Part shown: in pieces, positions 735 to 26,816 of the stretch | How the letters are laid out: the number at the start of each line of letters is the position of its first letter | Position numbering within the stretch: position 1 is the first letter of the stretch | Source of the DNA: a virus | Taxonomy: Duplodnaviria > Caudoviricetes | Reading direction: 5' to 3' (one strand) | Virus record (IMG/VR): IMGVR_UViG_3300037400_004242 | DNA length: 64,000 nt | The notes under the pieces: generated by a model | Database searches by the model: none | What the model saw: the letters and a program-made list of their open reading frames with translations, nothing else | What the model was told of the DNA's origin: nothing | Translations under genes and position numbers: made by a program

Positions 735-749
735 TATTTTGTTTATAGA
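735..749 (+). promoter_or_regulatory. TATTTW-N5-TAGA motif (candidate late promoter)
   Basis: tattttgtttataga, between a terminator and the SD of 766. Confidence 0.6.
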
Positions 750-765
750 AATATTTTAGAAGGAC

Positions 766-1563
766 GTGAATAAAATGGAAGATATTTACATTATGGATAT
801 AGATGAATTAAAAGAATTGTTAAAAAATAATTATAACCAATGTTTAAAAAATATTGATAAAAATTCTAATATGAAAAAATATTTTAGTGAAGATTATTTG
901 AAAAATTATTTTTCAAAAGTGGATAAAGAAAATCCTGATGGAGATATAGATTTATATGTTTATAATTTAATGGATGAATTGGATTTTAGATATACATGTG
1001 AAGATAACATAGGTGCGTATATAGATGATGAATTTGAAATGGCAGATGATTTACCTGATGATATACTAGCAGAATTATCAGATGAATATGGATATTATCA
1101 AAATTATTTAAAATGTAAAGATAAATATTTCCCCGATACAATAGAATATATGGAGGATTTGAAGAATAAAAAAGATAATATTGGAGAAAGTACTTTTTTA
1201 ACATATAAAATTGATTATGGAAATCGAGAATATCCATTTGTTTATGTAGATGGAAAAATATACAAAGGTAAATCTATGGAGACTCATACACAATTAGTTG
1301 AACGTGTGTTTTTAAAGCAAAAACCAAATGATGATGACATAACACGTTTGGATAATAATGAAATGGAAAAAGATGTAGGTTCGGATGTATTTGCTTTTGG
1401 TCATATATGTCAAGAGATGGCATTTATAGATAATAATTTATCAAATTGTACAAAAGAAGAAGTAGCAGATGCATTAAAATCACAGACAAATGTAAATAAA
1501 GTGTATTATTATGATTATAGTGATAAACAAGTAACGCGACTTGCTAAATTAAAAACTGTATGA
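766..1563 (+). CDS. Acidic hypothetical phage protein, paralog of 12..695
   Basis: Shared C-terminal domain ending TRLAK; SD agaagga. Confidence 0.75.
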   Translation: MNKMEDIYIMDIDELKELLKNNYNQCLKNIDKNSNMKKYFSEDYLKNYFSKVDKENPDGDIDLYVYNLMDELDFRYTCEDNIGAYIDDEFEMADDLPDDILAELSDEYGYYQNYLKCKDKYFPDTIEYMEDLKNKKDNIGESTFLTYKIDYGNREYPFVYVDGKIYKGKSMETHTQLVERVFLKQKPNDDDITRLDNNEMEKDVGSDVFAFGHICQEMAFIDNNLSNCTKEEVADALKSQTNVNKVYYYDYSDKQVTRLAKLKTV

Positions 1564-1576
1564 AAGGAAAGATTTA

Positions 1577-2755
1577 ATGAAGCGTTTAGGAATGAATAAA
1601 ATGACAGTTGTGTATTCACAAGAGCCTTTTCCAAAAGATGAAATGAAATCTATATTTTTAGCTGGTCCAGTACCTAGAAAAGAATATGAATTATCATGGA
1701 AAAATGAAGCATTAGAAATTTTGGATTCAATGGGATATAATGGCGTTGTATATATTCCTGAAAATAGAAATCCTGAACAAAAAGAAGGGAACTTTGATTT
1801 GCAAGCGCAATTAGATTGGGAATATACTTGTATGTGTGCTTGTGATGCTATTGTATTTTGGATTCCTAGAGAAATGCGTTCGGATTTTGAAATGATTGGA
1901 TTAACAACAAATGTAGAATTTGGTCGTTTTCTTAATTCAAATAAACTGTTTTGTGGTTGTCCTGATGAAGCACCAAGAATGGAATATTTGAAATTAATTT
2001 CAAGAGATAAGTATGAGTGGCATAATACACTTGAAGATACTTTGAAATCTGTGGTACAATATTTAGGTAGAGGAATGTATCGAGAAGATGAAGAAATAAA
2101 AATTCCTTTGCATATATACAAATCAAAACAATTTCAGAATTGGTATAAACAACAATTAAATGTAGGAAATTATTTAACTGGTTTTAATATGGAATATGAA
2201 TTTGTTATGCCAAAAGCAAAACAAATGTTTTTAGAGATTTTTCATCCATCGGTTTATATAGCAAAAGAAGATAGAGTAAAAGATAATGAATTTGTAGTGG
2301 CAAGAACGGATATGAGTTATATTCTTGCTTATTATAAGAAAGAAGATATAATGGATTCAGAAATTGTTTTATGTGAAGAATTTCGTAGTCCGATAAACAA
2401 CAATGAAGAAATGGTTTTTGAATTACCAGGTGGTAGTTCTCTTAATCCAAACGATGATGTTCTTTCGACTGCTTCTAAAGAATTAGAAGAAGAAACAGGG
2501 TTAAAATTAGATAAAAATCGTTTTGAACAAGTAGCATTAAAACAAAGCGCTGCTACATTGTGTTCTCATAAGATAGCTTTATTTAGAGTGGAATTAACAG
2601 AAGAAGAAATCAATTCGCTTAAAAAAGATAATAGTATTCATGGCGTAATCGAAGATACAGAACGAATTCATTTACACGTAATGAAGGTATCTGAAGCATT
2701 GGATATGGTAGATTGGACAAATACAGGTATGATATTAAATGGAATAAAGGAATGA
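1577..2755 (+). CDS. Nucleoside 2-deoxyribosyltransferase-like domain fused to a NUDIX hydrolase
   Basis: N-terminal IFLAGP..SWK..WEY..CDAIVFWIPR..TTNVEFG; C-terminal Nudix box GGSSLNPNDDVLSTASKELEEETGL. Confidence 0.8.
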   Translation: MKRLGMNKMTVVYSQEPFPKDEMKSIFLAGPVPRKEYELSWKNEALEILDSMGYNGVVYIPENRNPEQKEGNFDLQAQLDWEYTCMCACDAIVFWIPREMRSDFEMIGLTTNVEFGRFLNSNKLFCGCPDEAPRMEYLKLISRDKYEWHNTLEDTLKSVVQYLGRGMYREDEEIKIPLHIYKSKQFQNWYKQQLNVGNYLTGFNMEYEFVMPKAKQMFLEIFHPSVYIAKEDRVKDNEFVVARTDMSYILAYYKKEDIMDSEIVLCEEFRSPINNNEEMVFELPGGSSLNPNDDVLSTASKELEEETGLKLDKNRFEQVALKQSAATLCSHKIALFRVELTEEEINSLKKDNSIHGVIEDTERIHLHVMKVSEALDMVDWTNTGMILNGIKE

Positions 2756-2759
2756 AATT

Positions 2760-3875
2760 ATGTTAAAACATTTAAATTTTCATATTAATCAGATTTATTT
2801 AATGATGGGGTATCAATGTAATTTAAAATGTAAATATTGTATTGAACATAATGTAGTAAATCATGCGATGCCAAAGGAAATTAATCCACAGATTGTTGAT
2901 TGGATGATAGATATTGCTCAAAATATAGGTGGTTTTAATGTATTATTTTGGGGTGGTGAACCACTTGTATATTTTGATACTATGAAAAAAGTTGTTGAAA
3001 TGATAAAAGAAAAAGATATAAATCATAATATTTCTTTTTCGATGGTAACAAATGGAAAATTGCTAAATGATAAGACGATTCCGTGGATAAAAGAAAATTT
3101 AAAAGGTTTTGGTTTGTCGTGGGATGGAAGGAATACAGAAAGAACTCGTGGATATGATGTTATCAAGGAGAATAAAGAAAATTTATTTAAATTAGATGAT
3201 TGGGGATTTACAGGAGTTCTTTCTTCTTTTAATTATCCAAAAGATTACTTAGATGACTGTTATGAAATTGAGAAAGAATATGGAAAAGAAATCCATGTAA
3301 ATATAGACAATCTTATGCAATATGAAGATTTACCTGATGCAGAATTAAAAAAGTTTGATGAAAGTAAGTTTTATGGTCAAATGCGAGATATTTGCGATGC
3401 GTATATTGATTACTATATGAATGGTACAGAAATAAATCCAAATTATATACGTTGGATAGAAGAAGAATTTCAACGTATTGCAGAAGGAAAAAAAATAACG
3501 CGCTTGTATTGTGGAAACGGTGGAGAAAATATTAATTTAGATTTACAGGGAAATCTTTATTGCTGTCATGGTGATATAGACCCTGTTGGAACGATTAATG
3601 ATAATTATTTTGATGTGTTAAAGAACATTAATGATAAAGATAATACAATTCAACATGGTATAGATGGATGTAATGAATGTCCTGTACAAGTAATGTGTAG
3701 AAATGGATGCCCAAAAGTTCCGCAACATTCTAGGGATGAATTTTACTGTACAATGAATAATTTAAGATTTTATCCAATTTTAGAAACATATTATGAAATT
3801 GAGCGACTAAAAGGAGAAGAATTTTTTCAGAAGTTACAAGAGAGCAAGAAATTTATGGAGAGAGAAATTAAATGA
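2760..3875 (+). CDS. Radical SAM/SPASM-domain protein
   Basis: CNLKCKYC, WGGEP, TNG, SWDG; C-terminal CGNG..GNLYCCH..CNECPVQVMCRNGCP..YC. Confidence 0.92.
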   Translation: MLKHLNFHINQIYLMMGYQCNLKCKYCIEHNVVNHAMPKEINPQIVDWMIDIAQNIGGFNVLFWGGEPLVYFDTMKKVVEMIKEKDINHNISFSMVTNGKLLNDKTIPWIKENLKGFGLSWDGRNTERTRGYDVIKENKENLFKLDDWGFTGVLSSFNYPKDYLDDCYEIEKEYGKEIHVNIDNLMQYEDLPDAELKKFDESKFYGQMRDICDAYIDYYMNGTEINPNYIRWIEEEFQRIAEGKKITRLYCGNGGENINLDLQGNLYCCHGDIDPVGTINDNYFDVLKNINDKDNTIQHGIDGCNECPVQVMCRNGCPKVPQHSRDEFYCTMNNLRFYPILETYYEIERLKGEEFFQKLQESKKFMEREIK

Positions 3876-4963
3876 GAAATTTTCTTAAATCAAATATATC
3901 TAATATCTTTATTATGCTTGGACATGAGTGCAATTTACAATGTAAATATTGCTTACAACATGACGTAGTAAATGTTGCTCTAGATAAAAAAATTAATCCT
4001 GATATTTATTATTTTATTAATGATGTTGCTCGTAGTCAAGAAAATAGAGTTGGTTTACAATTCTATGGTGGTGAACCGCTTGTATTTTTTGATAAAATAA
4101 AAGAATTTGTGAATGGTTTACAAGAACATAATGTTCCTAATAATGTTTACTGCACGATGATTACGAATGGTAAATTATTAGATGAGGAAAAAGTAAAATA
4201 TATTAATCAGAATTTTTCTCATGTTACTATTAGTTGGGATGGAAGAAATTCTATTAAAACTCGTGGATATGATGTTATTAAAGAAAACAAAGAAAACATT
4301 TTTAAATTAAAGAGTTTCAATTTTTCAGGTGTACTTTCTTCATATAATTACATTAAAGACTATTTAGAAGATTGTGAACAAGTAAATCGTGATTATGTAG
4401 AAAATTATTATGGAAGAACATTGTACTTTAATGTTGATGATTTACTTGATGTAAATATGCAAAATCAAGATTTAAAAAATATTGATTTAGACATGGCGGC
4501 AATACAGATGAATGAATTGTGTGAAGAATATTATAATTTTGTCACGCAACATCAACCGATTAGTGTGATTCGTAAGCGATATATTGAGGAAAAAATAAAT
4601 TTCTTGCGTTCAAGTGTAAAGTCAAAACAATATCAGCCAATTCGTGATAGATGCGGAAATGGTTGTGAAGTTTTGAATATGGATTTAAGTGGTAATCTTT
4701 ATAAGTGTCATAATACAGATGATAAATTGGGAACAATTTATGACAATTATTTTGATTATATGAAAAAAGTTTTTGAATTGGATAAGGTAAATGAAAACTC
4801 AAAACGTTGTAATGAATGTCCTGTACAATTGATGTGTAGAAATGGATGCCCTCTTGTTGGAAAAGAAGCAAGAGAAGGATATTATTGTAACATGATTGTT
4901 TTTATGAATTACCCAATCATAAAACTTGTAGAAAAATTGGGTGGTGAAATAGATGTCAATTGA
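3872..4963 (+). CDS. Radical SAM/SPASM-domain protein, tandem paralog of 2760..3875
   Basis: CNLQCKYC, YGGEP, shared SWDGRN..TRGYDVIKENKEN and CNECPVQ.MCRNGCP; ATGA overlap. Confidence 0.92.
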   Translation: MRNFLKSNISNIFIMLGHECNLQCKYCLQHDVVNVALDKKINPDIYYFINDVARSQENRVGLQFYGGEPLVFFDKIKEFVNGLQEHNVPNNVYCTMITNGKLLDEEKVKYINQNFSHVTISWDGRNSIKTRGYDVIKENKENIFKLKSFNFSGVLSSYNYIKDYLEDCEQVNRDYVENYYGRTLYFNVDDLLDVNMQNQDLKNIDLDMAAIQMNELCEEYYNFVTQHQPISVIRKRYIEEKINFLRSSVKSKQYQPIRDRCGNGCEVLNMDLSGNLYKCHNTDDKLGTIYDNYFDYMKKVFELDKVNENSKRCNECPVQLMCRNGCPLVGKEAREGYYCNMIVFMNYPIIKLVEKLGGEIDVN

Positions 4964-5687
4964 ATATACTGCGCCAATATCGAATAAAGAAAATCCTGCT
5001 TTAAAAGTAACAAAGTTTGAACCAATGATAGGTTGGGACCCAAGTACACGAATTGTTAATAAAGTAGATTTAAATGCGATTGACCAAGCAATTACAAGAT
5101 TGGAGAAAATTAAGTCTCATGTACAGAATTGTGATTGCTTTGATGTTGTTACTTGTCAAACAATTTCTTGTCAGGAATGGACAAAGGGAACAGGAAACTG
5201 TAATTGGCAAAAATGTCAATCTGCAAAAGAATGTATAGATTATATTGAATTTGGTACATATGCAGGAACAGATATGGATAAGCCTATTTCTGCACCAGGC
5301 AAGTGGACACCAACAACTGCAAAAGGTGGTACAAGTCCAAAACCTGAGTATGAAATTAGTAAAACTCCAACAGGTTCTTCTACTCCTTTTCGTAGAAAAG
5401 CATATACATGTCAGGAAATGTCTTGCCAATTTATAACTTGTCAAACAATTATTTGTCAAAGTGGTTTACTTTGTCAGACTTGCCAATCTTGTGAAAGATG
5501 TCAAGTTTGTGAAAGTTGTGAATCTGAATGTTTATGTCAAACTTGTCAGATATGTCAAGATAAAACAATTCCACATAATGACTGTCAAAAGAAATATTGT
5601 CAAGATTGTCAGACGTGTCAAAATTTGATTTGTGAAAATGTAAAGTGCCAAGCGTATTTTACGGATGGTAAAGATTTACCAAATTAA
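4953..5687 (+). CDS. Cys-rich CQ/CE-repeat protein, putative rSAM substrate
   Basis: 27 Cys, most followed by Q/E, in CX4C then CX2C spacing; overlaps the upstream rSAM gene. Confidence 0.75.
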   Translation: MSIEYTAPISNKENPALKVTKFEPMIGWDPSTRIVNKVDLNAIDQAITRLEKIKSHVQNCDCFDVVTCQTISCQEWTKGTGNCNWQKCQSAKECIDYIEFGTYAGTDMDKPISAPGKWTPTTAKGGTSPKPEYEISKTPTGSSTPFRRKAYTCQEMSCQFITCQTIICQSGLLCQTCQSCERCQVCESCESECLCQTCQICQDKTIPHNDCQKKYCQDCQTCQNLICENVKCQAYFTDGKDLPN

Positions 5688-5729: not shown

Positions 5730-6086
5730 GTGATTTTAATGGAAGAACAGTCTACACAACCAGTACAACAACAACCTGTTCAAGCTCCGATGCAATCAAA
5801 GTTTTCAAATTTTTTTCATAGTATTATGTCTGTGGATGAAACACGAGTATCTGTATTGATGATAGGATTTATGTTATCATTATTTTTTGGTGGATATATG
5901 TATTTGTCAACGGGTGCATTAAGTCAAGTTTGGGCAGATATTGTTGAAACATTGATTTTTGCAGTTGCAGGTATCAATGCTGTTAATAGTGTCGTTGGTG
6001 GGAATAATAAAATTGGTCAGATATTGAGGGGAGCAACAAATAATCCACCTCCACCACCAATGCCACCAAGAGAGGAAAGAAAGTAA
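5730..6086 (+). CDS. Small two-TM membrane protein (holin-like)
   Basis: Two hydrophobic segments, Pro-rich and charged C-terminus; preceded by TATTTW-N5-TAGA at 5703..5717. Confidence 0.5.
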   Translation: MILMEEQSTQPVQQQPVQAPMQSKFSNFFHSIMSVDETRVSVLMIGFMLSLFFGGYMYLSTGALSQVWADIVETLIFAVAGINAVNSVVGGNNKIGQILRGATNNPPPPPMPPREERK

Positions 6087-11329: not shown

Positions 11330-12637
11330 TTGAAACTTAGTTCAAATACAAAGAAGAAAACTATTTCATTTTACTCATATCATTTAAATCATGAGAAATA
11401 TGAACAGATTGAAAATTTAGCAAAACAAATTCAAGCATATCAAAATTTCATTTCTGAGATTTACTACAACACTTATTTTCAGAAACAAAAGATTTCTTGT
11501 GGTAAATTCATCACAGAAATGAAAATATATCGTGATAAGGAATTTTCCTCTTCATTTTTTCAACAGATATGTAAACAAGTATATGAAAAATATGAAAAGA
11601 AAAAACCTCCAAAACAGCAAGTGGTTTTCAAGAAATTATCCTTTGTTGGTATCAATCTAATGACAAAACCTTTTATTGAAGAAAGCAACAACAAATATAC
11701 AAACGGAATTATCAATTTTAATATACCTAAACAAGGAGTAATTTGTATTCCATTTAGATATTCAAAAAAGTATCATGGTGATTTGTCAGATATTACTTAT
11801 TCCATGACAGGTGCAAACAAATCTCAATTTCAAAAACTGTATACTTGTACATTGTTAGGTAAAGATAAACTAAAAATTACTATTGTCGAGGATGATAACA
11901 GAACATATACTACATCAATCAATCACATCGAAGGTATAGATGTAAATGTAAAACATAACCTTTTACAATGTTCTGATGGATTTTCTGTAGATTATGATAG
12001 AAAATTTGTTACTAAAATTATTAAACAAAGAAAAAAGTATGATAGAATTGTATCTACCAAAATGAAAAGAAACATTGACCATACAATGACTGAAAAACAA
12101 TATCATTTAAGTAAGAAAAATTCACGAAGAAGTATTTCTATGGTGGAACAATGTTTGGTAAAATTATTTAAGCATTGTAATAAAAATGGTATTGACCATT
12201 TAGTTTTTGAAGATTTAGGTAAGTTTACAGGTAGACTAAAAATTACCAACAAAGAATTTGATGTTAACTATAAACGACTAATGTACGCAGTTAAACTTGT
12301 AGATATTAAAAACATTGCAGAACGAATTGGAAAGAAATATGGAATCACAATATCTTTAACCAATCCTGAATATACAAGTCAAGAATGCAGTTGTTGTCAT
12401 CATATTTCTAAAAAGAATAGGCAAACGCAAGAATTGTTTAAATGTGAAAATTGTGGATTTGAATTAAATGCAGACTTAAATGCATCCATCAATATAAAAA
12501 ACAGGATTCTCTCAAACGTTTTGAGAGAATCCTGTCATCAGGAAATTGAACCAAATAAATTCATTCCAATTTACAAGAACTACGAAGAATTTAAAACAGC
12601 ATACATAGAATTAATTAAACAAAATACCGTATCTTGA
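11330..12637 (+). CDS. tnpB: TnpB RNA-guided nuclease (IS200/IS605/IS607 family)
   Basis: RuvC-I GIDVN, RuvC-II VFEDL, Zn ribbon TSQECSCC..FKCENCG, RuvC-III NADLNASINI; catalytic D/E/D intact. Confidence 0.92.
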   Translation: MKLSSNTKKKTISFYSYHLNHEKYEQIENLAKQIQAYQNFISEIYYNTYFQKQKISCGKFITEMKIYRDKEFSSSFFQQICKQVYEKYEKKKPPKQQVVFKKLSFVGINLMTKPFIEESNNKYTNGIINFNIPKQGVICIPFRYSKKYHGDLSDITYSMTGANKSQFQKLYTCTLLGKDKLKITIVEDDNRTYTTSINHIEGIDVNVKHNLLQCSDGFSVDYDRKFVTKIIKQRKKYDRIVSTKMKRNIDHTMTEKQYHLSKKNSRRSISMVEQCLVKLFKHCNKNGIDHLVFEDLGKFTGRLKITNKEFDVNYKRLMYAVKLVDIKNIAERIGKKYGITISLTNPEYTSQECSCCHHISKKNRQTQELFKCENCGFELNADLNASINIKNRILSNVLRESCHQEIEPNKFIPIYKNYEEFKTAYIELIKQNTVS

Positions 12638-13934: not shown

Positions 13935-16643
13935 ATGTTAAATAAAGATATAACATTTTCATTAGATAGTTACGATAAGAAAAAATTCAAGCATGAAGTA
14001 TATGACCACAAGGATGTTTTCTATAGTAGAGAATATATTTATAATTTTAAATTTACAGTAAATATAGATAAAAATGAAATGCCAATTAATCATTTAATTA
14101 TTTATCGTAATGGTGAACCATATAACAATTGTAAGATTATACAAGTTGGGAATAAATCTTATGAGGTTAAAGATGATGTATGGATTCGTTATGGAAACAC
14201 ATGTTATGGTGTAGATGTCGTTCTTGAAGGTGGAAAAACATATCATAATTATTTCTATTTGAAAATTTTACAATCATATCAGCCAAATGATATTCGTTTT
14301 ATAAGTTTTGCAACGTATGGATTACATGAAAATTATTCTATGTTGGATGTAATTGCAAACATTCAGACAAAATATCAAATTGATAGAGTTTTATTATATG
14401 AACATATTTGTCCATTGACAGAGATAGATGAAAAAAGTCGTATATCTAAAATAAGTGAAATGAATGAAAGATATGATTCCAAAGAAATTAAATGGAATTA
14501 TTTGGGAAAAATGGATTTAATAAATCATCAATATCGTTTTCGTTATATGTTGTTTGATACGTCATTAACTGAGAATCGTACAGTATTATATAAGGCTGTA
14601 GTCGTAACAACAAATGAAGTTCGTAGAAGTGCAATTATGTCTACCATTATTAAACCTAATACAATGTCTGTTAATATATTTACATATATGAATACAGAAA
14701 CAAAAGAAAGATACGATATATATGGTGGATGTGTAGGACGTATTGATGCAAAAATTGATGAATACGACAATCCTGAATATAATGGCAAGATTTTTCAACT
14801 TTTAATAGATAAAAGAGACGATGAACAAAATTATTTAAAGTTGCTTGTCGGCGATGATTATAAATTTGAAGCAGATAATTATCATGTTGAATATAAAAGA
14901 AAGAAATTTAATCGTGTACAAACAAATCGTGACCCTAATATTTTTGAAATTTATGGTGATGGATTGGCTACAAAAGTTATTAATGAGGAAAGAGATTTAT
15001 ATCGTAGAGATAATTGTAGATTTTTAGTAACTTTATATTGCGGTGAAGATACTTTTGTTTCATTTAAAATTACTCCATTAAATGATAATAATTTGGCTGT
15101 TAACACGAATAAGACAGAAAATAATATTGTAAAATATTCTTATAATGGTGAATCCAAGATTATGGATAAACAATATTTGGATAAGACTGTAGATGTAAAT
15201 GCAATTCAAGGATATTATACATATAATAGAAAAACAGAAAATCTAATTTTTACAAATATTGATACAAAGGAACAACATATTACAATTATTCCTGATAAGC
15301 CAAAAGAATTATTGTTTCAGGAATTTGATTACATTACATATAACGATAAATATTTTTTCTTTGTCAACTTAGATAATAAAGGAATCCATATTACACGTTA
15401 TGATGGCGTTAATATTGATAAAATTGAATATTTTACAGAGATTATTAAGAGTTCATTAGATTGGATAAAGTCTCAGCAAATATTAAGTTTTGATAAAAAT
15501 AATAATTTAAATTTGAAATTTATATCTTCTAATGGCAGTAATTTTTTAAAGAAAATTGTTGTAGAAAATAATGATTTATCAGTTATTGATTATAGTGATA
15601 TGTTAGTAAATGTATTTAATGATATTCGTAAGCAGATGTTAAATTATGTTGATAATTTAAATTCTGTGACCGTTGGAAAAGTCGAATATATTATTAAAGC
15701 ATCAAATGTTTATGATACATTAGAGCATAAATTTGAGGATATGGGATATACGGATTTTAATTTGAAATTTACGACGCAATATTTTACATATCAAATCAAA
15801 TTCCCAATAGATGTTAAATTTTTAAACAAGACAACAAATGTTTATGTTCGTTTTCAAACGTCTATGACTGTTACTTGTAGAGAAGATGTTATTTTTTATG
15901 AGACGAATTATAGCTTAGGAAATCCAAGATTCGATATTGATATTGATAGTATTAATTTAACATATCATTATACAGATAATGGGAAAAATTTAATTCCTCA
16001 AGTTGGGTATGAAAAATTAAATCAAAAATATTTCTTGAAATTTAGTCAACCTGTAAACACATATACAAAAGAAGATTATGCAATTTTTAAACGTTGCGAT
16101 ATATATAATGGTGGAGCTAGTCTTTATAAGATAAATCCCGAAGATGTATATGGAAATGGGACAAAAGAAAAAACATTTAGGTATTCAGATTTATGTAGAC
16201 TACGTATTTTTATGCTAAATTATAAAGAGTACATGATTATGCGTTTTATGGGTGATAAATGCATGATGACAGTTGTTAATGTAGAATTGAAAGAGCAAAT
16301 ATCACAAGAAACTATTACAACAGATATGTATTTCGATAGTTTGTTCTATTTTACGAAAGAACAGCTTGTATCATTAGATGATTTGTTAAGTAGTGCATAT
16401 TTATATGATTCTGTAAAACGAAAAATGTATATTTGTGCATTGAGTGATTGTTATGTATTAGCTGTTGGTGGAACATATGATACATCATTTCATAATATGG
16501 AGAAATCGACTAGTTTAAGTGGTATTCCGTTAGATAATATGAAAACATATTTGTCTGAATATGAATTTAGTTATCCATTAAACATTAAAAATCGTAATCA
16601 TTATTTAAATGATATAGTCTTTAGTGAAGGGGTATATTCATGA
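13935..16643 (+). CDS. Large beta-rich hypothetical protein (possible structural/accessory tail protein)
   Basis: 902-aa ORF, SD gaaagga; no motif recognised. Confidence 0.6.
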   Translation: MLNKDITFSLDSYDKKKFKHEVYDHKDVFYSREYIYNFKFTVNIDKNEMPINHLIIYRNGEPYNNCKIIQVGNKSYEVKDDVWIRYGNTCYGVDVVLEGGKTYHNYFYLKILQSYQPNDIRFISFATYGLHENYSMLDVIANIQTKYQIDRVLLYEHICPLTEIDEKSRISKISEMNERYDSKEIKWNYLGKMDLINHQYRFRYMLFDTSLTENRTVLYKAVVVTTNEVRRSAIMSTIIKPNTMSVNIFTYMNTETKERYDIYGGCVGRIDAKIDEYDNPEYNGKIFQLLIDKRDDEQNYLKLLVGDDYKFEADNYHVEYKRKKFNRVQTNRDPNIFEIYGDGLATKVINEERDLYRRDNCRFLVTLYCGEDTFVSFKITPLNDNNLAVNTNKTENNIVKYSYNGESKIMDKQYLDKTVDVNAIQGYYTYNRKTENLIFTNIDTKEQHITIIPDKPKELLFQEFDYITYNDKYFFFVNLDNKGIHITRYDGVNIDKIEYFTEIIKSSLDWIKSQQILSFDKNNNLNLKFISSNGSNFLKKIVVENNDLSVIDYSDMLVNVFNDIRKQMLNYVDNLNSVTVGKVEYIIKASNVYDTLEHKFEDMGYTDFNLKFTTQYFTYQIKFPIDVKFLNKTTNVYVRFQTSMTVTCREDVIFYETNYSLGNPRFDIDIDSINLTYHYTDNGKNLIPQVGYEKLNQKYFLKFSQPVNTYTKEDYAIFKRCDIYNGGASLYKINPEDVYGNGTKEKTFRYSDLCRLRIFMLNYKEYMIMRFMGDKCMMTVVNVELKEQISQETITTDMYFDSLFYFTKEQLVSLDDLLSSAYLYDSVKRKMYICALSDCYVLAVGGTYDTSFHNMEKSTSLSGIPLDNMKTYLSEYEFSYPLNIKNRNHYLNDIVFSEGVYS

Positions 16644-17692
16644 GCCATGTTTTACAAATTCAAATGACAAATCAATGTAATTTAAAATGTGAATATTGTT
16701 ATATTCATCAAAATAATGATAAAATGTCGTTTGAAATGTTAAAACAACAAATTAAATATGTAAAACAATTATCAAACAGAATAGACGATGATTTTGATGG
16801 AAAATATGATGTTACATATTTTGGTGGGGAGCCGTTAATTGAATATCAAAATATATTAAAATTTGATGAATATTTAAAACAATCATTAAATGTGCAACAT
16901 TCTTTCATTCAAACAAATGGTATTTTGTTAGATAAAGAAAAAATTAAACAATTAAGAAAAAAGAATATTTATATTGGAATTAGTTGTGATGGTTGTAATG
17001 ATAAGAATCATATATATATTGAAAAAATTTTTCAAAATAAATGGTTGCCTGTAGAAGCAAAAATGATGATAAATAAGTATAACGTTTTTGACTTAATGAA
17101 AAATGTTATATATTTTTATCGTCAAGCGATGAAAGTTAATTGTGGAAATTTATATATAGATGTTTCTTTTGTAAAGGACAATACATGGGATAAACATTCT
17201 ATTATAGAATTAAGACAACAATTAAAAAATTTGTATGATTTTATGATGATGAATTATAGAGATTATCATCGTTGGATTGATATTGGATTTGTTAATAGAA
17301 TTTGCGCAAATATTTTGAACAAAAAACGAAATTATATTTGTTTTGCAGGAGTGAATGGATATAATTTAACTCCGGATGGAATTATTTATCCATGTGCTAG
17401 ATTTTATACAAATCATAAATATCCATTGTTTGATTCAAATAGTTATAAATTTTATGATAAAAATATAGATATAATAAAGCATTGGAATCGGACAAAAAAT
17501 GATAAATGTATGAATTGTGTATTGAATCAATTTTGTAATCAAGGATGCTTATATTCTCAAATTAATAACAATGGAATTATTGATATGTATTGTGATGTAT
17601 TAAAGTCATGCTATCATATGGTAACAACTTTGTATAAAACGATGAAAAATGAATATAATGTGAATATATTAAAGAAAGTTGGTAAGATTTAA
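16640..17692 (+). CDS. Radical SAM/SPASM-domain protein
   Basis: CNLKCEYC, FGGEP, QTNG; CFAG..GIIYPC..CMNC..FCNQGC..YC. Confidence 0.9.
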   Translation: MSHVLQIQMTNQCNLKCEYCYIHQNNDKMSFEMLKQQIKYVKQLSNRIDDDFDGKYDVTYFGGEPLIEYQNILKFDEYLKQSLNVQHSFIQTNGILLDKEKIKQLRKKNIYIGISCDGCNDKNHIYIEKIFQNKWLPVEAKMMINKYNVFDLMKNVIYFYRQAMKVNCGNLYIDVSFVKDNTWDKHSIIELRQQLKNLYDFMMMNYRDYHRWIDIGFVNRICANILNKKRNYICFAGVNGYNLTPDGIIYPCARFYTNHKYPLFDSNSYKFYDKNIDIIKHWNRTKNDKCMNCVLNQFCNQGCLYSQINNNGIIDMYCDVLKSCYHMVTTLYKTMKNEYNVNILKKVGKI

Positions 17693-18757
17693 ATGGAAAA
17701 ACCACCTATTAGTGTTTCAATAAATATGGGAAGTGCTTGTAACTTTCGCTGTAAATATTGTTTTGAGGTAAAGAATGGTGCAGTTAATGATTCTAAAAGA
17801 CTTCAACAAAAAGTGAAAGAACGAGTTATTGATGTTATTAAATTATTGACTGAAACAAATAAAGTTCGTATTGAATTTTGGGGTGGTGAGCCGACAGTAT
17901 ATTTTGATGACATTTATGAAATTATTGAAGCAACGAAAGCATATGAAGAAGTAACCTATTTTATGTATACAAATGGTTCTTTGGTTGAAAAATATAGTAA
18001 AGAATTGCTTCAAATAAAAAATGATGTTGGGCATCGTTTTCAAGTACAAGTTTCTTATGACTATCATGATTTAAAAAATAATCAACGCATTCAATTGAAT
18101 AAGACAGTTGAAGAAACTGAAAAAATGGTATTAGATGCGATTCATTTTTTTGATGATAATGATTTTTTCTTCGGAACAAAAACAACTTGTACAATGCATG
18201 ATTTAGAAGAGAATTTATTTCATCAATATATGAATTTTGAAAATTTAAATAAAACATTAAAACATAAAGTAAATTTTAATCCAACACCTGATACATTAGG
18301 TGTTGGAAATGTTAATTATAATAAAATAGAAAAACAATTTATTCAATTGTTAAAATATTTTGTTAAAAATAAAAAGTTTGGGAAAACAGGATTCATGTGG
18401 TTTGATATGCCATCTAATGCAGATTGTACAGGTGGAATACATTCGTTTCAAATAGATGTTGACGGCAGAGTTACATATTGCCATGGATGTTTATATAGTA
18501 AGAAAGATTTGTTTTACACTTCTGTATTTGATGATAATTTTCTTCATAAAGTAGATTATAATTATCTTGCAGTATATAGAAAATACAAGAAAAATAGTCA
18601 ATGTTCAGATTGCAATTCACAATTCTGTTTCAGATGTAACGCAATTAATAGTGATGGAAACATAGAAGATTGGGATAAATCAAATATTCCTGATGTTTGT
18701 AAATTATATAATAAAATTTCAGATTATATCCGCGCCTATTACAAAATAACTCATTAA
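17693..18757 (+). CDS. Radical SAM/SPASM-domain protein
   Basis: CNFRCKYC, WGGEP, YTNG; CTGG..YCHGC..CSDC..FCFRC..VC. Confidence 0.9.
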   Translation: MEKPPISVSINMGSACNFRCKYCFEVKNGAVNDSKRLQQKVKERVIDVIKLLTETNKVRIEFWGGEPTVYFDDIYEIIEATKAYEEVTYFMYTNGSLVEKYSKELLQIKNDVGHRFQVQVSYDYHDLKNNQRIQLNKTVEETEKMVLDAIHFFDDNDFFFGTKTTCTMHDLEENLFHQYMNFENLNKTLKHKVNFNPTPDTLGVGNVNYNKIEKQFIQLLKYFVKNKKFGKTGFMWFDMPSNADCTGGIHSFQIDVDGRVTYCHGCLYSKKDLFYTSVFDDNFLHKVDYNYLAVYRKYKKNSQCSDCNSQFCFRCNAINSDGNIEDWDKSNIPDVCKLYNKISDYIRAYYKITH

Positions 18758-18819
18758 TTTTACGATGTATTTTATTTTTCTAATAGAATAGGTATTGAAA
18801 AATTTGGAGTTGATAATAT

Positions 18820-20397
18820 ATGGCGATATGTACGGACACAAAATATGTAGAGGGATTTTATCAAATTGTAGAACCTCCACAATTTTTAAAAGACATGTTT
18901 CCAATTTGTAGACCTTTTGGTGACCCCGGTGATGACAAAAGTTATGAATTCGGGAGTAGTTATTGGAGCGGGTTCGATTCTACTTCTCGTGATGAAGCAT
19001 CAAGTCGTGGATTAAGTAATCGTAAAGGTCGTTTAAAAGATTCTTTTAGTGTTACAGATAAAGTTACGAATAAAGATTGGAACTGTGCAATTGTAAAATT
19101 GAAACAAGAATTTGCTATTCGTTGCGGTTTTAAGCATAATTGGATTCCATTTGTAGAACAAACGGGAGATTTTGGATTATCCAATCATTTAGGATATTTC
19201 CGTGATGGTATTAAAGGCGGAAGTGATGGTGATAGTGACCCAACGCAAGGCGAAAAAACGGATATTGTATATCGTAGAGATATGCAAAAAATATACTTAG
19301 ATATTATTCGTTTGCTAGACTATGAAGTTCCAATGTATTCCGTAGAAGATGGAAGCAAAAATCCTCGTTTCCCAGAGTTTAGAGGTATTTTTTCTAATGA
19401 TTATGGTAAAGTTGGGGACTACAATTCTATTTTAAAAGAAATTGTTGATATTGATGATGCTGATAAATTTTTAAAACAAGGGAATAATGTGTTTTTACCT
19501 CCTGATAATAAAGCATCTGAGAAAAAATGGAAATATTTTCATTTAAATGATAATGTTATTGGCTATCCTGGTGAACCAGCTTCTTCTTGTGCAAAATATG
19601 AAGGAAAATTAGAGAGTTTTGGTGATAACTATCCACCTGGTGGTTCAATTAACATTGACCAGCTAAACGATTGGGAAAGTCGTTATACATTAGGTACTGA
19701 TGCATATGATTTTAAAAAAATGACCAAGAAACGTATTTTGCAATTCATTGGTGCGTCTCAACCTTGGTATCGTAAGTCCGATTCATTATTGGATTGGGAC
19801 GATGGTATTTTTATTGATTATTGGCAACCAAAAAGAGATACTGATGATTTCGCATACGCTCAAGAAATAGTTCCTAATACATATTATCCATATGGAAATA
19901 AGGATTATACAGAAGATGGTGGAGCAGGTGGAAAAGAACCAAAGCCATCAGCATTATATAAAGCTGTACAAGAATTTAGAAAGAAATTTATAAATCCTGC
20001 AAAAGAAACTACAGATAATGATTTATTAGTTTCTGCCAAAATTTCAAAAACAGCTACAGTTGATAGAGATTTATATGGTAATCCAATTACACAAACTGTA
20101 GAAGAAGATGCATCATTTTCAGTAGCATATGTTATGAGACATGCTTATACAGAGTTTCAAACGGTAGATAAATATGGCGATGATGGAAAACTAATTAGTA
20201 GAATGACAATCGGCGGTGATAAAATTATCGTTGATGCTAACTCTGTCGCAAATGTGTTTATGAAAACAATAAATAAAATTTCAGATATTTGCGTTTGTAA
20301 CTGCAATTATTGTTCTTGCTTTGGTAATGAAGTTACATGCTTATGCTATGTTGTTAAGGTAACAGGTTGGTGCTATTCATACATGTATGTATATTAA
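18820..20397 (+). CDS. 525-aa protein with C-terminal Cys cluster, putative rSAM substrate/virion protein
   Basis: Ends in CVCNCNYCSC..TCLC..WC; preceded by TATTTW-N5-TAGA at 18773..18787. Confidence 0.7.
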   Translation: MAICTDTKYVEGFYQIVEPPQFLKDMFPICRPFGDPGDDKSYEFGSSYWSGFDSTSRDEASSRGLSNRKGRLKDSFSVTDKVTNKDWNCAIVKLKQEFAIRCGFKHNWIPFVEQTGDFGLSNHLGYFRDGIKGGSDGDSDPTQGEKTDIVYRRDMQKIYLDIIRLLDYEVPMYSVEDGSKNPRFPEFRGIFSNDYGKVGDYNSILKEIVDIDDADKFLKQGNNVFLPPDNKASEKKWKYFHLNDNVIGYPGEPASSCAKYEGKLESFGDNYPPGGSINIDQLNDWESRYTLGTDAYDFKKMTKKRILQFIGASQPWYRKSDSLLDWDDGIFIDYWQPKRDTDDFAYAQEIVPNTYYPYGNKDYTEDGGAGGKEPKPSALYKAVQEFRKKFINPAKETTDNDLLVSAKISKTATVDRDLYGNPITQTVEEDASFSVAYVMRHAYTEFQTVDKYGDDGKLISRMTIGGDKIIVDANSVANVFMKTINKISDICVCNCNYCSCFGNEVTCLCYVVKVTGWCYSYMYVY

Positions 20398-21715: not shown

Positions 21716-22353
21716 TGGGAAAACAAATGTTATTTTTTTGCGGAATAATAACAATTAATAATGTTAATTTTTTGGTAAATCCTTTTACAAAAATTGAGGG
21801 TGAACCTGTTCTTCTGAGCAGAGATGCATATGTTCAGCTAACTGCTGAAGCATATGATTTCGTCACAAATGTTTTAGATTTATCACATAGAGAACCACAA
21901 TGCAAAGTTTATATTGAATGTTCTCCAACAGAAAAAGAAATTTTTGACAGAGACGATTTGAAAATTAATGAAGAGTTAAATAATGAGTCTCCTGAAGATA
22001 AACTTGATGCATATAAAGAAAAATGTATTCGTTTGATGAATGAAATGATTTCAAATCAACTTATGATTTCTAATTTTGAATTATATCATTTCTTTAAATT
22101 GAATCATTATCTTGAATCTAAAGGTTTCTTTATTACAGATGAAAATCGTGAAGAAAAGTATTTGGAAGTTATTAATAGTGGTGATGCAGAAGCACTTGAG
22201 AAACTTTCTGAATATTTGGATTCATTAGATGAATTTAATGCGATTGATGATATTTATATGCGTTATAAGGAATTTAAAGACAAGGTTAAGGTTGCTAAGA
22301 ATGAACAAGAAATTAAAGATGCATACATCGCCATGTCAAAAGCAACATTTTAA
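21715..22353 (+). CDS. Hypothetical protein with ITDENREEKYLE motif (recalled from phage rSAM loci)
   Basis: GFFITDENREEKYLEVINSGD motif; the family association is from memory and not searched. Confidence 0.6.
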   Translation: MGKQMLFFCGIITINNVNFLVNPFTKIEGEPVLLSRDAYVQLTAEAYDFVTNVLDLSHREPQCKVYIECSPTEKEIFDRDDLKINEELNNESPEDKLDAYKEKCIRLMNEMISNQLMISNFELYHFFKLNHYLESKGFFITDENREEKYLEVINSGDAEALEKLSEYLDSLDEFNAIDDIYMRYKEFKDKVKVAKNEQEIKDAYIAMSKATF

Positions 22354-23149
22354 TATTGTTTATATGACTAATGAATCATATTTGTTTCAAACATATGTTT
22401 CTATTAGTTCATTGAAGATGAATAAACATCATAACATCAGTTATGATGTTTATTTGTTATGTATTGAAATGCAAGATATTGGAGATATAAAAAAATTAAA
22501 TGATGAGGATTTTTGTATTCATTCAATTTATATTGAACGTAATATTTATAGATATGATGCTAATGCAGGTGTTGTATATTATAAAATGATTTTACACGAA
22601 TTATTGGATGTGGATACAGTATTTCATATTGATTCAGATACAGTTGTTATTGATGATGTTTCAAGTATTTTTGATTATAATTTAACCGATTATTTTTGTG
22701 GTGGTGTAAAAGATAAAATTAAAGGATTGAAATACTTTAATGCAGGAAATGTGTTGTTAAATTTAAAAAAAATACGAGAAACATTATATGATAATGAATA
22801 TACAATGTATGATTATTTTTGGCAATTAGATAAAGAATTAAGAGATAAAAAAGGATTCCTTTGGGAACAAGATGTTTTTAATAAGGCTTTTGAAAATAAG
22901 ATTTTATATATTAATTATGGCTATAATTTTTTGGTGAATACTTATAGCCAATATAAGTTTAATGATTTAAGTAGAATTTATGGAGAAAAAGTAGATTATA
23001 AAAAAATTAAAATATTACATTTTGCAAGTCATCCAAAACCGTGGATAAAAACAAATTTATTTGGTGAAATTTGGAAAATGTATGCAGAAAATAAAGTAAA
23101 TAAAGAATTAGAACAGAAAATATTGAGGGTGGCGTGTCGTGAGTATTGA
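22229..23149 (+). CDS. Glycosyltransferase family 8 (true start probably 22319 or later)
   Basis: HIDSDTVV (DxD), YFNAG, WEQDVFN, ILHFASHPKPW. Confidence 0.9.
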   Translation: MNLMRLMIFICVIRNLKTRLRLLRMNKKLKMHTSPCQKQHFNIVYMTNESYLFQTYVSISSLKMNKHHNISYDVYLLCIEMQDIGDIKKLNDEDFCIHSIYIERNIYRYDANAGVVYYKMILHELLDVDTVFHIDSDTVVIDDVSSIFDYNLTDYFCGGVKDKIKGLKYFNAGNVLLNLKKIRETLYDNEYTMYDYFWQLDKELRDKKGFLWEQDVFNKAFENKILYINYGYNFLVNTYSQYKFNDLSRIYGEKVDYKKIKILHFASHPKPWIKTNLFGEIWKMYAENKVNKELEQKILRVACREY

Positions 23150-24293
23150 TAGAAAACAAGCATTATTAATGCAATTTATGTTAGGTTCAAATTTAAAAGT
23201 AAAAAAAAGAGATAAAGATAAAATATTAGTTACTTGTAATATAGCTACCCGTCAAGGACACCAATATTTATGGGGAGCAGAAAAATATTGTATGAAAATT
23301 TGTCATCAGTTGGCAAAAAAATATGAAGTACATTTGTTTCAACAAGCAGAAAATTTTTTAAATTGTAATGATATTATTGTGCATCCACATATTTATAATT
23401 TTTTTTCTCGTTCAAAATTATTAGAAGTTGCTTTTAAGGCTTCTATGGTACAACCAAGATGCATTTTATGTAATGCAGGAACAGGTTCACAAGCGTTATT
23501 TTGGACAATTGTAGCAAAAATTATTGATGTTCCAATTATTATGTTTTTACATAATGAACCAACTTTTATAAAAGATACAATTTCTCCTGAATGGGGTATG
23601 TATTATGTTCGTGGTCAAACAATTATGAAAGATAAAGATATGCTGTATGATTTCGTCTTAGATTATTGTGATGAATTAGCATTTTTATTACCGCAATATA
23701 TAGATAGTAAATATAAAGATAAAACTTATGTGTATCTTAATTGTATTGATATTCCTAACAATGTAGATGTTGAATCAGATAGAAAAAATTTGTTGTATGT
23801 TGGTAGAATTAATACCGATGTTAAACGTACACAAATATTGTTAGATTGGGTTAAAAATACAGAATATGCTTGTAAAGTATGTGGCTATAATTATCAAGAA
23901 GATGGGTATCTTGATATGAATCAATATCAAAAATATAAAAATATAAATTTTTTAGGATACCATAAAAATATGGATAACATTTATCGTGAATCTAACGTAT
24001 TAGTTATTCCATCTTTATATGAAGGACTTCCAACAGTTGCATTAGAAGCATTATCTTATGGTATACCAATTGTTGGATTTAAAGAATGTAAATCTATGAA
24101 TGATATTATTCAGGATGGATATAATGGATGGCTAGTAGATAATAACTTTTCAGATGTTATGGAAAAAGTAATGTCTATAAAAGATATGAGACAAATTCGT
24201 AAGAATTGCTTAAATGAATCGAAAAAATATGATATAAATAATATTATGAAAACAATTTTTAAATCAATAGAGGATGTTAAATGTGAAGATTAA
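23139..24293 (+). CDS. Glycosyltransferase family 4 (GT-B)
   Basis: WGAEK, LYVGRI..K, PSLYEGLPTVALEALSYGIPIV, GYNGWL. Confidence 0.9.
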   Translation: MSIDRKQALLMQFMLGSNLKVKKRDKDKILVTCNIATRQGHQYLWGAEKYCMKICHQLAKKYEVHLFQQAENFLNCNDIIVHPHIYNFFSRSKLLEVAFKASMVQPRCILCNAGTGSQALFWTIVAKIIDVPIIMFLHNEPTFIKDTISPEWGMYYVRGQTIMKDKDMLYDFVLDYCDELAFLLPQYIDSKYKDKTYVYLNCIDIPNNVDVESDRKNLLYVGRINTDVKRTQILLDWVKNTEYACKVCGYNYQEDGYLDMNQYQKYKNINFLGYHKNMDNIYRESNVLVIPSLYEGLPTVALEALSYGIPIVGFKECKSMNDIIQDGYNGWLVDNNFSDVMEKVMSIKDMRQIRKNCLNESKKYDINNIMKTIFKSIEDVKCED

Positions 24294-25206
24294 TTTAATT
24301 TACTATTTATATGAAGTGAATGGTGCATTTACTTCATTTGAAGATACATTTTATAATTTAAGCAAGTTTACAAATCATAATGTTAATTTCTTTATTTTAT
24401 ATGAAGATAAATATATGTTAGCACAATTTAAAAAATATCTTCCAAAAGGCTCAGGAATTTGCTTATTAGAATTACCAAAAACTCCAGATAAAGGAACGAA
24501 TTTATATAAACGTGTTGCAGTTAGGGAAGTATATCATACAATGGTATATAATATAAAAGGTGACATTAATATTATTAGTTCTGAAGTTATTCGATTACAA
24601 AAAGCAAATAGAATTAAACAGAGTGCAAGTCAAGAAATGTTGTTATATCCTGCATTTATATATAAAGAACAAGGATTAGATAAAACTTTTTACAATGATG
24701 AACAAGAATATATTAAAAATAATGATGTACTTGTAATATGTAATAAATTTAATACAAAGTATGTTAATAATTCATTTGTTTGGTATATGCAATTTTCAAA
24801 AGAAAGAATTGAACAATTAAAAAAACTTGTTTCTAATGAAAATGATGTTTTATGTGCTGAAGAATATTATAAAAATAAAATGAATTGTAAAAATATTGAA
24901 CCGTTTTCATATAAGAAATATGAATATTATAGATATGATAAAAAAAATGAAACAAATTGTTATACAGATGATGGAGCAAGATATTATGAAAATATTGGAA
25001 AATTAATGTTTGAATTTGTTTTACTGGGAAAAGAATCATCATATTCTCCAAGAAATAAACAATTTGATGATGGATTGACAGAATTCATGAATTATTTGGG
25101 ATACGATGATAATCAATTATATTGGTGGAATCATAAGGATATTTCTTATTTAGAAAAAAGATTGTTTATGAACAAAGAAAATAAATTGTTATCTTTATTT
25201 AAATAA
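24274..25206 (+). CDS. Hypothetical protein in the glycosylation operon
   Basis: Overlapping operon ORF; no clear motif. Confidence 0.65.
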   Translation: MLNVKINLIYYLYEVNGAFTSFEDTFYNLSKFTNHNVNFFILYEDKYMLAQFKKYLPKGSGICLLELPKTPDKGTNLYKRVAVREVYHTMVYNIKGDINIISSEVIRLQKANRIKQSASQEMLLYPAFIYKEQGLDKTFYNDEQEYIKNNDVLVICNKFNTKYVNNSFVWYMQFSKERIEQLKKLVSNENDVLCAEEYYKNKMNCKNIEPFSYKKYEYYRYDKKNETNCYTDDGARYYENIGKLMFEFVLLGKESSYSPRNKQFDDGLTEFMNYLGYDDNQLYWWNHKDISYLEKRLFMNKENKLLSLFK

Positions 25207-25226
25207 AATTGGGAGAAGGTTCATCA

Positions 25227-26816
25227 ATGAAAATTCTTGGAATACAATGTTATCAAGATTATAATGTAACATATTTTGATACAGTTACAAAAGATTTGAA
25301 ATATACAGAACTTGAAAAATTATTGAAGAAAAAACATTTTTCTTTTCATTCTGATAAAATAGATTATATGCCTGAAATTGATAGAATTTACGATGATAAT
25401 TTAAGAAATAATTTATATAAATGTCAGCGTATTATTCATGAAGAATTAGGTGTAAATAGATTTGATGTTGTTTGTTGGAATTACAAAACTTTTAAAGATG
25501 GATATTTAAAACAAGAATCTTATGATTTTGTAAAAATGTTAGAGCGTTGTGATGTTTTGAAATTTCATCATCAAGAGAATCATGTATTACCTACGATTTT
25601 TGAATATGATTTAAAAGATGCATTATGTTTTTCAATTGATGGAAAAGGTGACGGGAACCATGCTTTTTATCATTGGAAAGATAATAAATTAAATTTGTTG
25701 TTTCAGGAAAAAGCATTTTCTTATGGAATGTTTTATGAAGTCTTAGCATGTTATTTCTTAGATAAGAAGAATCAGTATGAACAAGGGTTAGAAGGAAAAT
25801 ATATGGCTTATGCAGGTTTGTCTAATAAATTCCTTGAACTTGAAAATATTGATGCTTTTATGAATGAAGTAAAAAAGACAAATTGGAATATATGGGAAGA
25901 TAAGATTGAAGTAGAAAAATTTATTTATAATTATTTAGATAAAATGTCAGAAAAATATGATAAATATGATTTGGCATATACTATGCAAAAATTATGGATA
26001 AATAATGTTATGGCTGATATAGCAAAGTATCGTCATGAAAGTGAAAATTTTGTAATTTCAGGTGGATGTGCATTAAATTGTATGTTAAATTATGAGATTA
26101 TAAAAACTGGATGGTTTAAAAATGTGTATTATACACCTATTGTTTCAGATGTTGGACAATCATATGGAGCAGTATTAAATTATTTATTGCATTATTCTCC
26201 TGAAAATTTAAAATTTGTAGATTCTGATGATTTTTCTATTACAGAAGGTATTCGAGATAAAAAATATTTTGATTCTATTTCTTCTAATTTTCATACATAT
26301 CAAATAGAAGAAATTTCATCAATATTAGAAAACGATGGAATTGTTGGAATATGTCGTGGAAATATAGAAATGGGACCTCGTGCATTAGGGAATCGTAGTA
26401 TATTGGCTTCACCTTTTCATAAAGAAATGCATGATAAATTAAATAAAATAAAAGGAAGAGAATGGTATCGTCCGTATGGAGTTATTGTTCCAAGAGAATA
26501 TTTATCACGTTATTTCGATATTGATGTTGATGTAAAATATATGAATATGTTAGCATATCCAAAAGACAAAGATGTACTTTTGGGAGCGCAACATACAGAT
26601 GGAACAATTCGTATTCAAACTGTTTCAGATGAAGATAATCGTTGGTTACATGATTTATTATTAACTTTTGGACAAAAAACAGGAGTTCCAATTTTAATTA
26701 ATACATCATTTAATGATGGTGGTATGCCAATTTTTAATTATATGAAAGACATGTATCGTATGTATAATGAAAAATTAAATGCTCTCGTTTATGAGAATAA
26801 GATGGTGTCAAAATGA
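25227..26816 (+). CDS. Carbamoyltransferase (NodU/CmcH/TobZ family)
   Basis: HHQENH, SIDGKGD, EGKYMAYA, SGGCALNC, EMGPRALGNRSIL, KGREWYRPY, LINTSFN. Confidence 0.92.
   Translation: MKILGIQCYQDYNVTYFDTVTKDLKYTELEKLLKKKHFSFHSDKIDYMPEIDRIYDDNLRNNLYKCQRIIHEELGVNRFDVVCWNYKTFKDGYLKQESYDFVKMLERCDVLKFHHQENHVLPTIFEYDLKDALCFSIDGKGDGNHAFYHWKDNKLNLLFQEKAFSYGMFYEVLACYFLDKKNQYEQGLEGKYMAYAGLSNKFLELENIDAFMNEVKKTNWNIWEDKIEVEKFIYNYLDKMSEKYDKYDLAYTMQKLWINNVMADIAKYRHESENFVISGGCALNCMLNYEIIKTGWFKNVYYTPIVSDVGQSYGAVLNYLLHYSPENLKFVDSDDFSITEGIRDKKYFDSISSNFHTYQIEEISSILENDGIVGICRGNIEMGPRALGNRSILASPFHKEMHDKLNKIKGREWYRPYGVIVPREYLSRYFDIDVDVKYMNMLAYPKDKDVLLGAQHTDGTIRIQTVSDEDNRWLHDLLLTFGQKTGVPILINTSFNDGGMPIFNYMKDMYRMYNEKLNALVYENKMVSK

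Follow-up and report, generated by a model that had tools for sequence, protein, structure and literature searches.

Thioether crosslinking by radical S-adenosylmethionine (SAM) enzymes with a SPASM domain has so far been described for small bacterial peptides and for a few proteins, the targets of QhpD and CrpC among them. CteB, encoded beside the gene for the Cys-rich peptide SCIFF (PDB 5WGG, 5WHY; TIGR03974), combines a radical SAM domain with a seven-Cys SPASM domain, and six positions that face its active site have been defined (F112, F152, T186, S210, H363 and Q364; PMC10288494). CrpC of Methanococcus voltae, also a seven-Cys SPASM enzyme, introduces ranthionine links into CrpA, a Cys-repeat protein of 28.8 kDa (PMC13692751). 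PapB, which acts on freyrasin (NF047865), and QhpD (TIGR03906) form Cys-to-Asp/Glu thioethers at multiple sites, and the target of QhpD belongs to a larger protein complex as one of its subunits (PMC8326336). In the CXXX-repeat system (TIGR04114/04115/04117) a radical SAM gene adjoins genes for proteins with a terminal Cys ladder. Here we describe a comparable module in a virus of the class Caudoviricetes (IMG/VR record IMGVR_UViG_3300037400_004242), where positions 2760 to 5687 of the 64,000-nucleotide stretch analyzed (the window) encode two radical SAM/SPASM enzymes and a 244-residue protein with 27 Cys, most of them followed by Gln or Glu (the CQ protein). We found no phage-encoded radical SAM thioether system, and no virion substrate of one, in the open-access literature. 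The module is conserved in other phages and prophages, and analogy with the described systems suggests a known chemistry, predicted to be thioether formation, in a new setting.

The phage enzymes compared with described maturases

The three genes of the module overlap, rSAM-1 and rSAM-2 by 4 nt (ATGA) and rSAM-2 and the CQ gene by 11 nt; a GGTGG Shine-Dalgarno sequence precedes the CQ gene. In the lines below, RRE is the RiPP recognition element, a RiPP being a peptide made on the ribosome and modified after translation.

2760..3875, plus strand: rSAM-1, radical SAM/SPASM enzyme without an RRE (371 residues); a diverged paralog seen in one sub-lineage only (PF04055, SPASM Cys, own clade, dN/dS)
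3872..4963, plus strand: rSAM-2, radical SAM/SPASM enzyme without an RRE (363 residues); the conserved enzyme beside the CQ gene (PF04055; nearest structure CteB, 5WGG)
4953..5687, plus strand: type-A CQ protein, 244 residues with 27 Cys, the predicted substrate (open reading frame, Cys pattern, no family match)

The two enzymes are 42% identical over 364 residues and both match PF04055. Each carries CxxxCxxC at residues 20, 24 and 27, a GGE motif and a full seven-Cys SPASM motif (residues 251, 269, 304, 307, 313, 317 and 330 in rSAM-1; 261, 279, 313, 316, 322, 326 and 339 in rSAM-2), and by these sequence features both paralogs belong to the radical SAM/SPASM superfamily. The CxxxCxxC triad and the seven SPASM Cys are invariant across 63 aligned relatives, among which no eighth conserved SPASM Cys was found. 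Seven SPASM Cys leave auxiliary cluster I (AuxI) with an open site, as described for CteB and CrpC (PMC8326336, PMC13692751), an arrangement that is compatible with thioether formation and does not prove it. Because the triad begins at residue 20 and leaves no room ahead of it, both enzymes lack the N-terminal RRE expected of ranthipeptide synthases; 18 to 27 residues precede the triad in 60 of the 63 relatives.

The solved structure closest to the enzyme family profile is CteB (5WGG, E 3.6e-31), followed by 8VPO and then by anSME (E 8e-19). At the six active-site-facing positions rSAM-2 and its orthologs in large (jumbo) phages carry L-Y-I-S-H-N and the three rSAM-1 copies I-W-V-S-H-G, where CteB has F-F-T-S-H-Q; the Ser and His at the S210 and H363 positions are invariant, the His having been checked in the 63 relatives. 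These features support assignment of the enzymes to the CteB/PapB-like SPASM type, in agreement with a sequence-only reading of the window that had placed them in a thioether-forming family.

By score, RRE or substrate motif, the module belongs to none of the described systems, although by analogy it would work like CteB/SCIFF, PapB, QhpD and above all CrpC/CrpA. The enzymes share with CteB the domain composition, an adjoining gene for a Cys-rich substrate and, among the active-site positions, the Ser at 4 and the His at 5. They differ from it in lacking the RRE, in being encoded by a phage and in length (about 360 residues versus 450), and the phage substrate differs from SCIFF in its 244 residues, its 27 Cys, its folded N-terminal repeat and its apparent composition of two chains. 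The Crp system (TIGR04463) likewise has a protein-sized Cys-repeat substrate and two substrate-like genes, crpA and crpB, with related N-termini (PMC13692751). CrpC, however, has an RRE, the Crp genes lie on an archaeal chromosome rather than in a phage, and CrpA is built on a 17-residue repeat with C-X-X-Q/D, whereas the phage protein has Q/E at +1 and periods of 3 and 5 (PMC13692751). TIGR04463 was not among the best 25 models for the enzymes, which by this search fall outside the Crp system.

No NCBIfam maturase family was reached. The top model was NF047865 (PapB), at 96 to 108 bits under a cut-off of 340, and TIGR03974 gave 78 to 82 bits against 425; by these two curated scores neither enzyme is a ranthipeptide synthase. 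Scores for the QhpD model were far under its cut-off of 453, and the phage ladders differ from the PapB and QhpD substrates in having no regular CX3D motif. For the CXXX-repeat system the enzyme score was 41.5 bits against a cut-off of 350; the target models gave no match to the CQ protein, which has no Cys at every fourth residue and is spaced mainly as CX2C and CX4C.

In the tree the rSAM-1 copies stand apart as a long-stemmed clade (support 100/100), and of the jumbo-phage relatives examined only L001 and L012 share the gene with the window. Selection on rSAM-1 is purifying (dN/dS about 0.22–0.32). The free tree places rSAM-1 outside all rSAM-2 sequences, and a recent duplication was not rejected (p-AU 0.116). 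Among the cultured phages of INPHARED there was no close enzyme (all below 35% identity). In cultured phages of Ralstonia (RSP15, RP12) and Achromobacter (JWF), here L003, L004 and L005, distant SPASM genes do stand beside tail, fibre or virion genes, and these phages may prove convenient to work with as models of related modules.

The CQ proteins and a three-repeat helical domain

The CQ protein consists of an N-terminal helical unit and two Cys blocks separated by a Cys-free stretch.

4986..5141, plus strand: N-terminal cap unit, residues 12-63 (helix 37-54, ending VxNC); one IKAVHITELRxAI-type repeat corresponding to repeat 1 of a three-repeat helical domain (profile search, hhalign, AlphaFold2)
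5130..5234, plus strand: Cys block 1, residues 60-94, 7 Cys (Cys count)
5235..5408, plus strand: residues 95-152, free of Cys and rich in P/T/G/S; for the most part an insertion specific to the lineage, absent in L002, L006 and L169
5409..5648, plus strand: Cys block 2, residues 153-232, 20 Cys in mixed CX4C and CX2C spacing (Cys spacing)

Gln directly follows 18 of the 27 Cys and Glu follows 4, and these 22 CQ/CE pairs compare with a mean of 6.3 and a maximum of 15 in 100,000 shuffles of the Cys blocks. The sequence-only reading had reported the two overlapping paralogs, the 244-residue frame, the 27 Cys and the 22 pairs, all of which our coordinates and counts confirm. It had also assigned CX4C spacing to the first block and CX2C to the second. 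The two blocks stand, but the register shift from CX4C to CX2C falls inside block 2 (spacings 4,4,4,5,2,2,2,2,2,3,1,2,2,9,4,2,2,4,4) and then reverts; block 1 has spacings 1,5,4,9,4,5. The P/T/G linker of that reading is present here (58 residues, 48% P/T/G/S) but is not a general feature, being absent from orthologs in L002, L006 and L169, where the longest Cys gap is 9 to 14 residues; L001 and L012 carry a different insert of about 90 residues at another position. The phages with two enzymes are those with long insertions in the CQ protein, which, within one lineage, is only a hint of a connection. We also considered the P/T/G insertion as a hypervariable stretch and rejected this on 3 variable sites in 58 within the species cluster.

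Across 63 non-redundant ladders of the family, 76% of 1,092 Cys are followed by Gln, Glu, Asn or Asp, and 643 of 770 Gln come directly after Cys. The residue that follows C-Q/E is Ser or Thr in about 55% of cases, and CX3C makes up 84 of about 1,030 spacings. The CQ protein had no match in Pfam, NCBIfam, PHROG or the ESM Atlas; its 90% cluster has 24 members, one of them seen on 150 contigs of up to 348 kb.

CQ genes at prophage loci stand in tandem and are of two types, told apart by the end of the helix, which is VxNC in type A and FSxNCC in type B; the sequence of the window protein makes it type A. The helix repeat occurs once in type A and twice in type B. A profile of the N-terminal 52 residues of the window protein matched 750 proteins, and among the best 150 of these, 63 carry the helix motif at least three times in tandem within a nearly Cys-free and mostly C-terminal domain. 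This three-repeat domain (WTD..IKAVHITELRxAI; for example P0166:535-643, with about 60 others) is carried by phage and bacterial surface proteins with immunoglobulin-like (Ig) and fibronectin type III (FN3) domains, and it is predicted to form three helices (pLDDT 86.7, the predicted score in the local distance difference test). By hhalign, type A aligns with repeat 1 (97.1%) and type B with repeats 2-3 (96.6%). No Pfam family covers the domain, and nothing in the PDB matched it clearly (Foldseek best E 0.92); VIA gave a designed filament as its best match (Z 8.6, ordinary for helical bundles), and BFVD gave weak matches only. The cap unit further occurs in fusions, where it follows LamG or other large domains.

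One repeat from type A and two from type B make three, and the N-terminal helix is therefore better read as one third of an assembly domain than as the leader proposed in the sequence-only reading. The helix itself is confirmed (residues 37-54 are the sole confident helix in the AlphaFold2 model, pLDDT 83–84); its leader role is not supported, given its homology to a structural repeat of Cys-free proteins and the missing RRE. Type A and type B probably rebuild the three-helix cap together, with the two Cys ladders extending from it, and we think an A:B heterodimer fairly likely. Complex prediction with the N-termini from L097 lends this weak support: the pair scored 0.39, versus 0.00 for the best control, with contact agreement between runs of at least 81% and partner pLDDT of at least 59. 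In a benchmark the mark used was reached by 58 of 80 solved pairs and 2 of 110 mismatched pairs, and at 0.60 or under by 7 of the 80 solved pairs and by both mismatches. The split-cap reading offers a concrete reason for the pairing of A and B genes and says which proteins belong together in an assay.

Type B adjoins type A in prophages, and a jumbo phage with only type A at its enzyme locus is predicted to have type B elsewhere. This was borne out in the close jumbo relative G001, where a 224-residue type-B gene lies 210 kb from type A, behind a 240-residue gene with a weak tail-fibre match (E 1.1e-4); L257 and L258 likewise keep type B apart, at a conserved site that follows a fibre-like gene. 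Type B was not found in G003, which is incomplete, and gave no match among the INPHARED cultured phages. We infer that the window's own phage genome carries a type-B gene elsewhere; the type-B partner had been missed in the sequence-only reading.

The full prophage cassette (L097:6100-9000, L265:12624-15487, L103, L104) comprises A, B, a small Hint-like gene, a gene for about 280 residues, a second, distant radical SAM gene and a gene for about 230 residues. The same cassette accompanies fibres ending in CNCDCDCGDD. In some type A or B proteins, moreover, the Cys ladder runs straight into a fused Hint domain (L010:9469-10395, L259:1018-1707, P0131, P0184, P0212, P0219), which suggests C-terminal self-processing of these proteins.

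Linkage, a probable virion setting and competing explanations

About 240 loci around rSAM-2 relatives were collected, dereplicated at 85% and required to have at least 1.5 kb of flank. Type A or B genes occur at 33 of 48 close enzyme loci, which is not a count of independent events because these loci also supplied the A/B profiles and include many related prophages, and at 0 of 80 more distant radical SAM loci. A structural-looking gene with CNC/CDC repeats at its end stands at 8 further close loci. The linkage is seen both in jumbo phages and in Acidaminococcus, Megasphaera and Selenomonadaceae prophages. In the reverse direction, both of the divergent type-A profile matches on long enough contigs lie at most two genes from a radical SAM gene, two further matches being on contigs too short to judge. 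The neighborhood comparison suggested by the sequence-only reading thus found co-occurrence, and from this linkage the CQ protein is the likely substrate, as that reading had supposed. That the enzymes modify CQ proteins we regard as very likely.

The module comes after baseplate and fibre genes in prophages, and in L010 the baseplate genes J-gp48-gp10C lie upstream. Five of the 10 upstream genes tested have tail-fibre PHROG matches; a count of baseplate genes (3 of 28) is made uninformative by short flanks and narrow queries. With such neighbors in its relatives, the fibre role that had been proposed for the CQ protein is likely to hold. The protein is probably a tail-fibre tip component, and we place reasonable confidence in its being part of the virion.

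We propose, and give an even chance to, a phage module that chemically matures a virion appendage through a split A+B cap and CteB-like thioether stapling of Cys-Gln ladders. Type A and type B would be made late and would pair via the three-helix cap, type A giving one helix repeat and type B two, giving the same cap that in single-chain phage and surface proteins consists of three repeats in tandem. rSAM-2 would bind the folded cap or the ladder directly and take a hydrogen from the side chain of a Gln, Glu, Asn or Asp near the Cys or of the Ser/Thr that follows; the Cys thiol held at AuxI would then be coupled to that side chain, and the step would be repeated along the ladder. The resulting staples would stiffen the ladder, making disulfides unneeded in an anaerobic host. 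rSAM-1 would be a diverged duplicate with a changed active site, retained in one sub-lineage and dispensable for both Cys registers. The A:B binding, the virion location, the chemistry and the acceptor are all conditional here. Known ranthionine acceptors are Asp, Glu, Asn and Thr (PMC8326336). By reasoning rather than by result, a position at a short, constant offset or on the partner chain is more probable for the acceptor than one at a repeat's distance, because the +1 residue is fixed while the Cys spacing varies from 2 to 4. A more elaborate form, which we put forward tentatively as possible, is a two-chain tail-fibre tip with a 1+2 split cap, in which RRE-less enzymes add dozens of thioethers, possibly between chains, giving an oxygen-independent scaffold that shows variable host-binding loops such as the P/T/G insertion.

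Several observations weigh against this proposal, besides the kinship of profiles and loci given above. Just two of the six active-site-facing residues match those of CteB, and the reaction may therefore differ. The Cys ladder has no confident AlphaFold2 model (pLDDT below 50). No type-B gene was found in the window or in G002, which is 86% complete. L007 and L008 keep an rSAM-2 ortholog, with gene order unchanged, but no CQ gene beside it; in L007 (7001-8203, on a 500-kb phage contig) the ortholog has unchanged active-site residues and 117 bp stand in place of the CQ gene. At five close loci no target is evident in the surrounding DNA that was retrieved. The module's neighbors in the window are nucleotide-metabolism genes (a NUDIX fusion, a dUTPase and a helicase) outside the tail operon.

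The CQ proteins on a virion fibre might be modified in some other way, by Cys oxidation to an aldehyde or thioaldehyde as with anSME, epimerisation, C-C linking or Fe-S loading of the ladder. The four of six active-site-facing residues unlike CteB's would fit this, as would the structural relationship to anSME (E 8e-19) and the NCBIfam maturase scores, all far under cut-off. We judge it unlikely, however, given the His at the CteB H363 position, invariant in 63 relatives, the seven SPASM Cys with no conserved eighth, which would leave AuxI open to the thiol of a substrate, like that of CteB and CrpC (PMC13692751), and the fixed pattern of Cys plus amide or acid, which agrees with known thioether substrates. 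Thioether formation, argued by analogy, is the modification we favor with some confidence. CX2C runs are typical metal ligands, and the CQ protein could be a metal-binding or disulfide-bonded structural protein whose neighboring enzymes act on another target, in keeping with the few close loci that have no adjacent Cys-rich gene and with the nucleotide-metabolism setting in the window. This is very improbable in view of the tight two-way linkage and overlapping genes, seen in jumbo phages and prophages, and of the upstream structural genes ending in CNC/CDC repeats that are often found where A and B are missing.

In a classical RiPP the helix would be a cleaved leader and the stapled Cys core, which we take to resemble the CQT/CQS runs of SCIFF, a diffusible product with an anti-host, anti-defense or metal-chelating role. 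Many relatives are indeed small (80–130 residues) with a conserved N-terminus and a variable Cys core, and some have a Hint domain that could self-cleave. The protein does not look like a leader-core precursor, with its 244 residues, an N-terminus of folded-repeat type homologous to a Cys-free domain and no peptidase or transporter among the neighboring genes checked; the RRE-less enzymes, the fusion of the cap unit behind LamG and other large domains and the position of the module after tail-fibre genes also speak against a RiPP, which we consider improbable. The most doubtful explanation is a division of labor, with one enzyme per Cys register or an enzyme heterodimer, both of which had been raised in the sequence-only reading. 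Tandem paralogs recur in L044 and L211, and rSAM-1 may have a distinct job because it is under purifying selection and keeps its own constant active-site set. Yet both CX2C and CX4C are found at five jumbo-phage loci with one enzyme (L002, L006, L013, L169, L173), and over 152 kb of G002 there is no second close paralog, so that neither register splitting nor an obligate heterodimer is likely; that only L001 and L012, of the jumbo relatives examined, share the second paralog with the window tells against the heterodimer as well.

If stapling of CQ ladders is correct, phages of the anaerobic gut would harden structural proteins without disulfides, and the module would supply a useful RRE-less enzyme able to process chains with as many as 30 Cys and with insertions of 50–90 residues.

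Genome setting and other features of the window

By its gene content, which includes a tail sheath gene at 38431, the window is part of a large myophage; a close relative has 281 kb at 98% completeness, and a near-identical CQ protein is present on contigs of up to 348 kb. The module ends a gene run headed by a candidate late promoter:

735..749, plus strand: TATTTW-N5-TAGA motif, candidate late promoter; heads the gene run 766-5687, just 3' of a terminator-like hairpin (704-731)

The window has 13 copies of this motif versus 1.8 expected, and copies also precede sheath-region and tail genes. It stands shortly upstream of gene starts at 735, 5703, 9005, 9048, 18773, 30446, 32545, 37682, 41992, 45619 and 58523, and in L001 it is kept at the same place, heading an orthologous gene run. 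A sigma-70 scan of the window gave matches at chance level. TATTTW-N5-TAGA may thus be a late promoter, and the module may be expressed late.

Directly upstream of the enzymes lies a fusion of a nucleoside-deoxyribosyltransferase-like domain and a NUDIX domain (1577-2755), which always holds this position in the jumbo relatives. It is preceded by tandem acidic paralogs ending ...RLAK(W/L/F).. (12-695 and 766-1563), of which the window has two and L001 three (115-2981), with no family match. A gene at 5730 for a 118-residue membrane protein with two helices has its own motif copy and is retained in L007, which lacks the CQ gene; on these two grounds we set it aside as a part of the module.

Farther downstream, a 435-residue open reading frame with a C-terminal zinc-ribbon pattern (11330-12637) looks like a TnpB-type transposon nuclease and is absent from the same place in G001. 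One run at 22229-29300 contains glycosyltransferase-like and carbamoyltransferase-like genes and two short radical SAM genes, assigned by appearance only. A second module (13935-20397), conserved in G001, has a 902-residue gene product, two more distant radical SAM/SPASM genes (16640, 17693) and a 525-residue protein that ends in a helix and CVCNCNYCSC.

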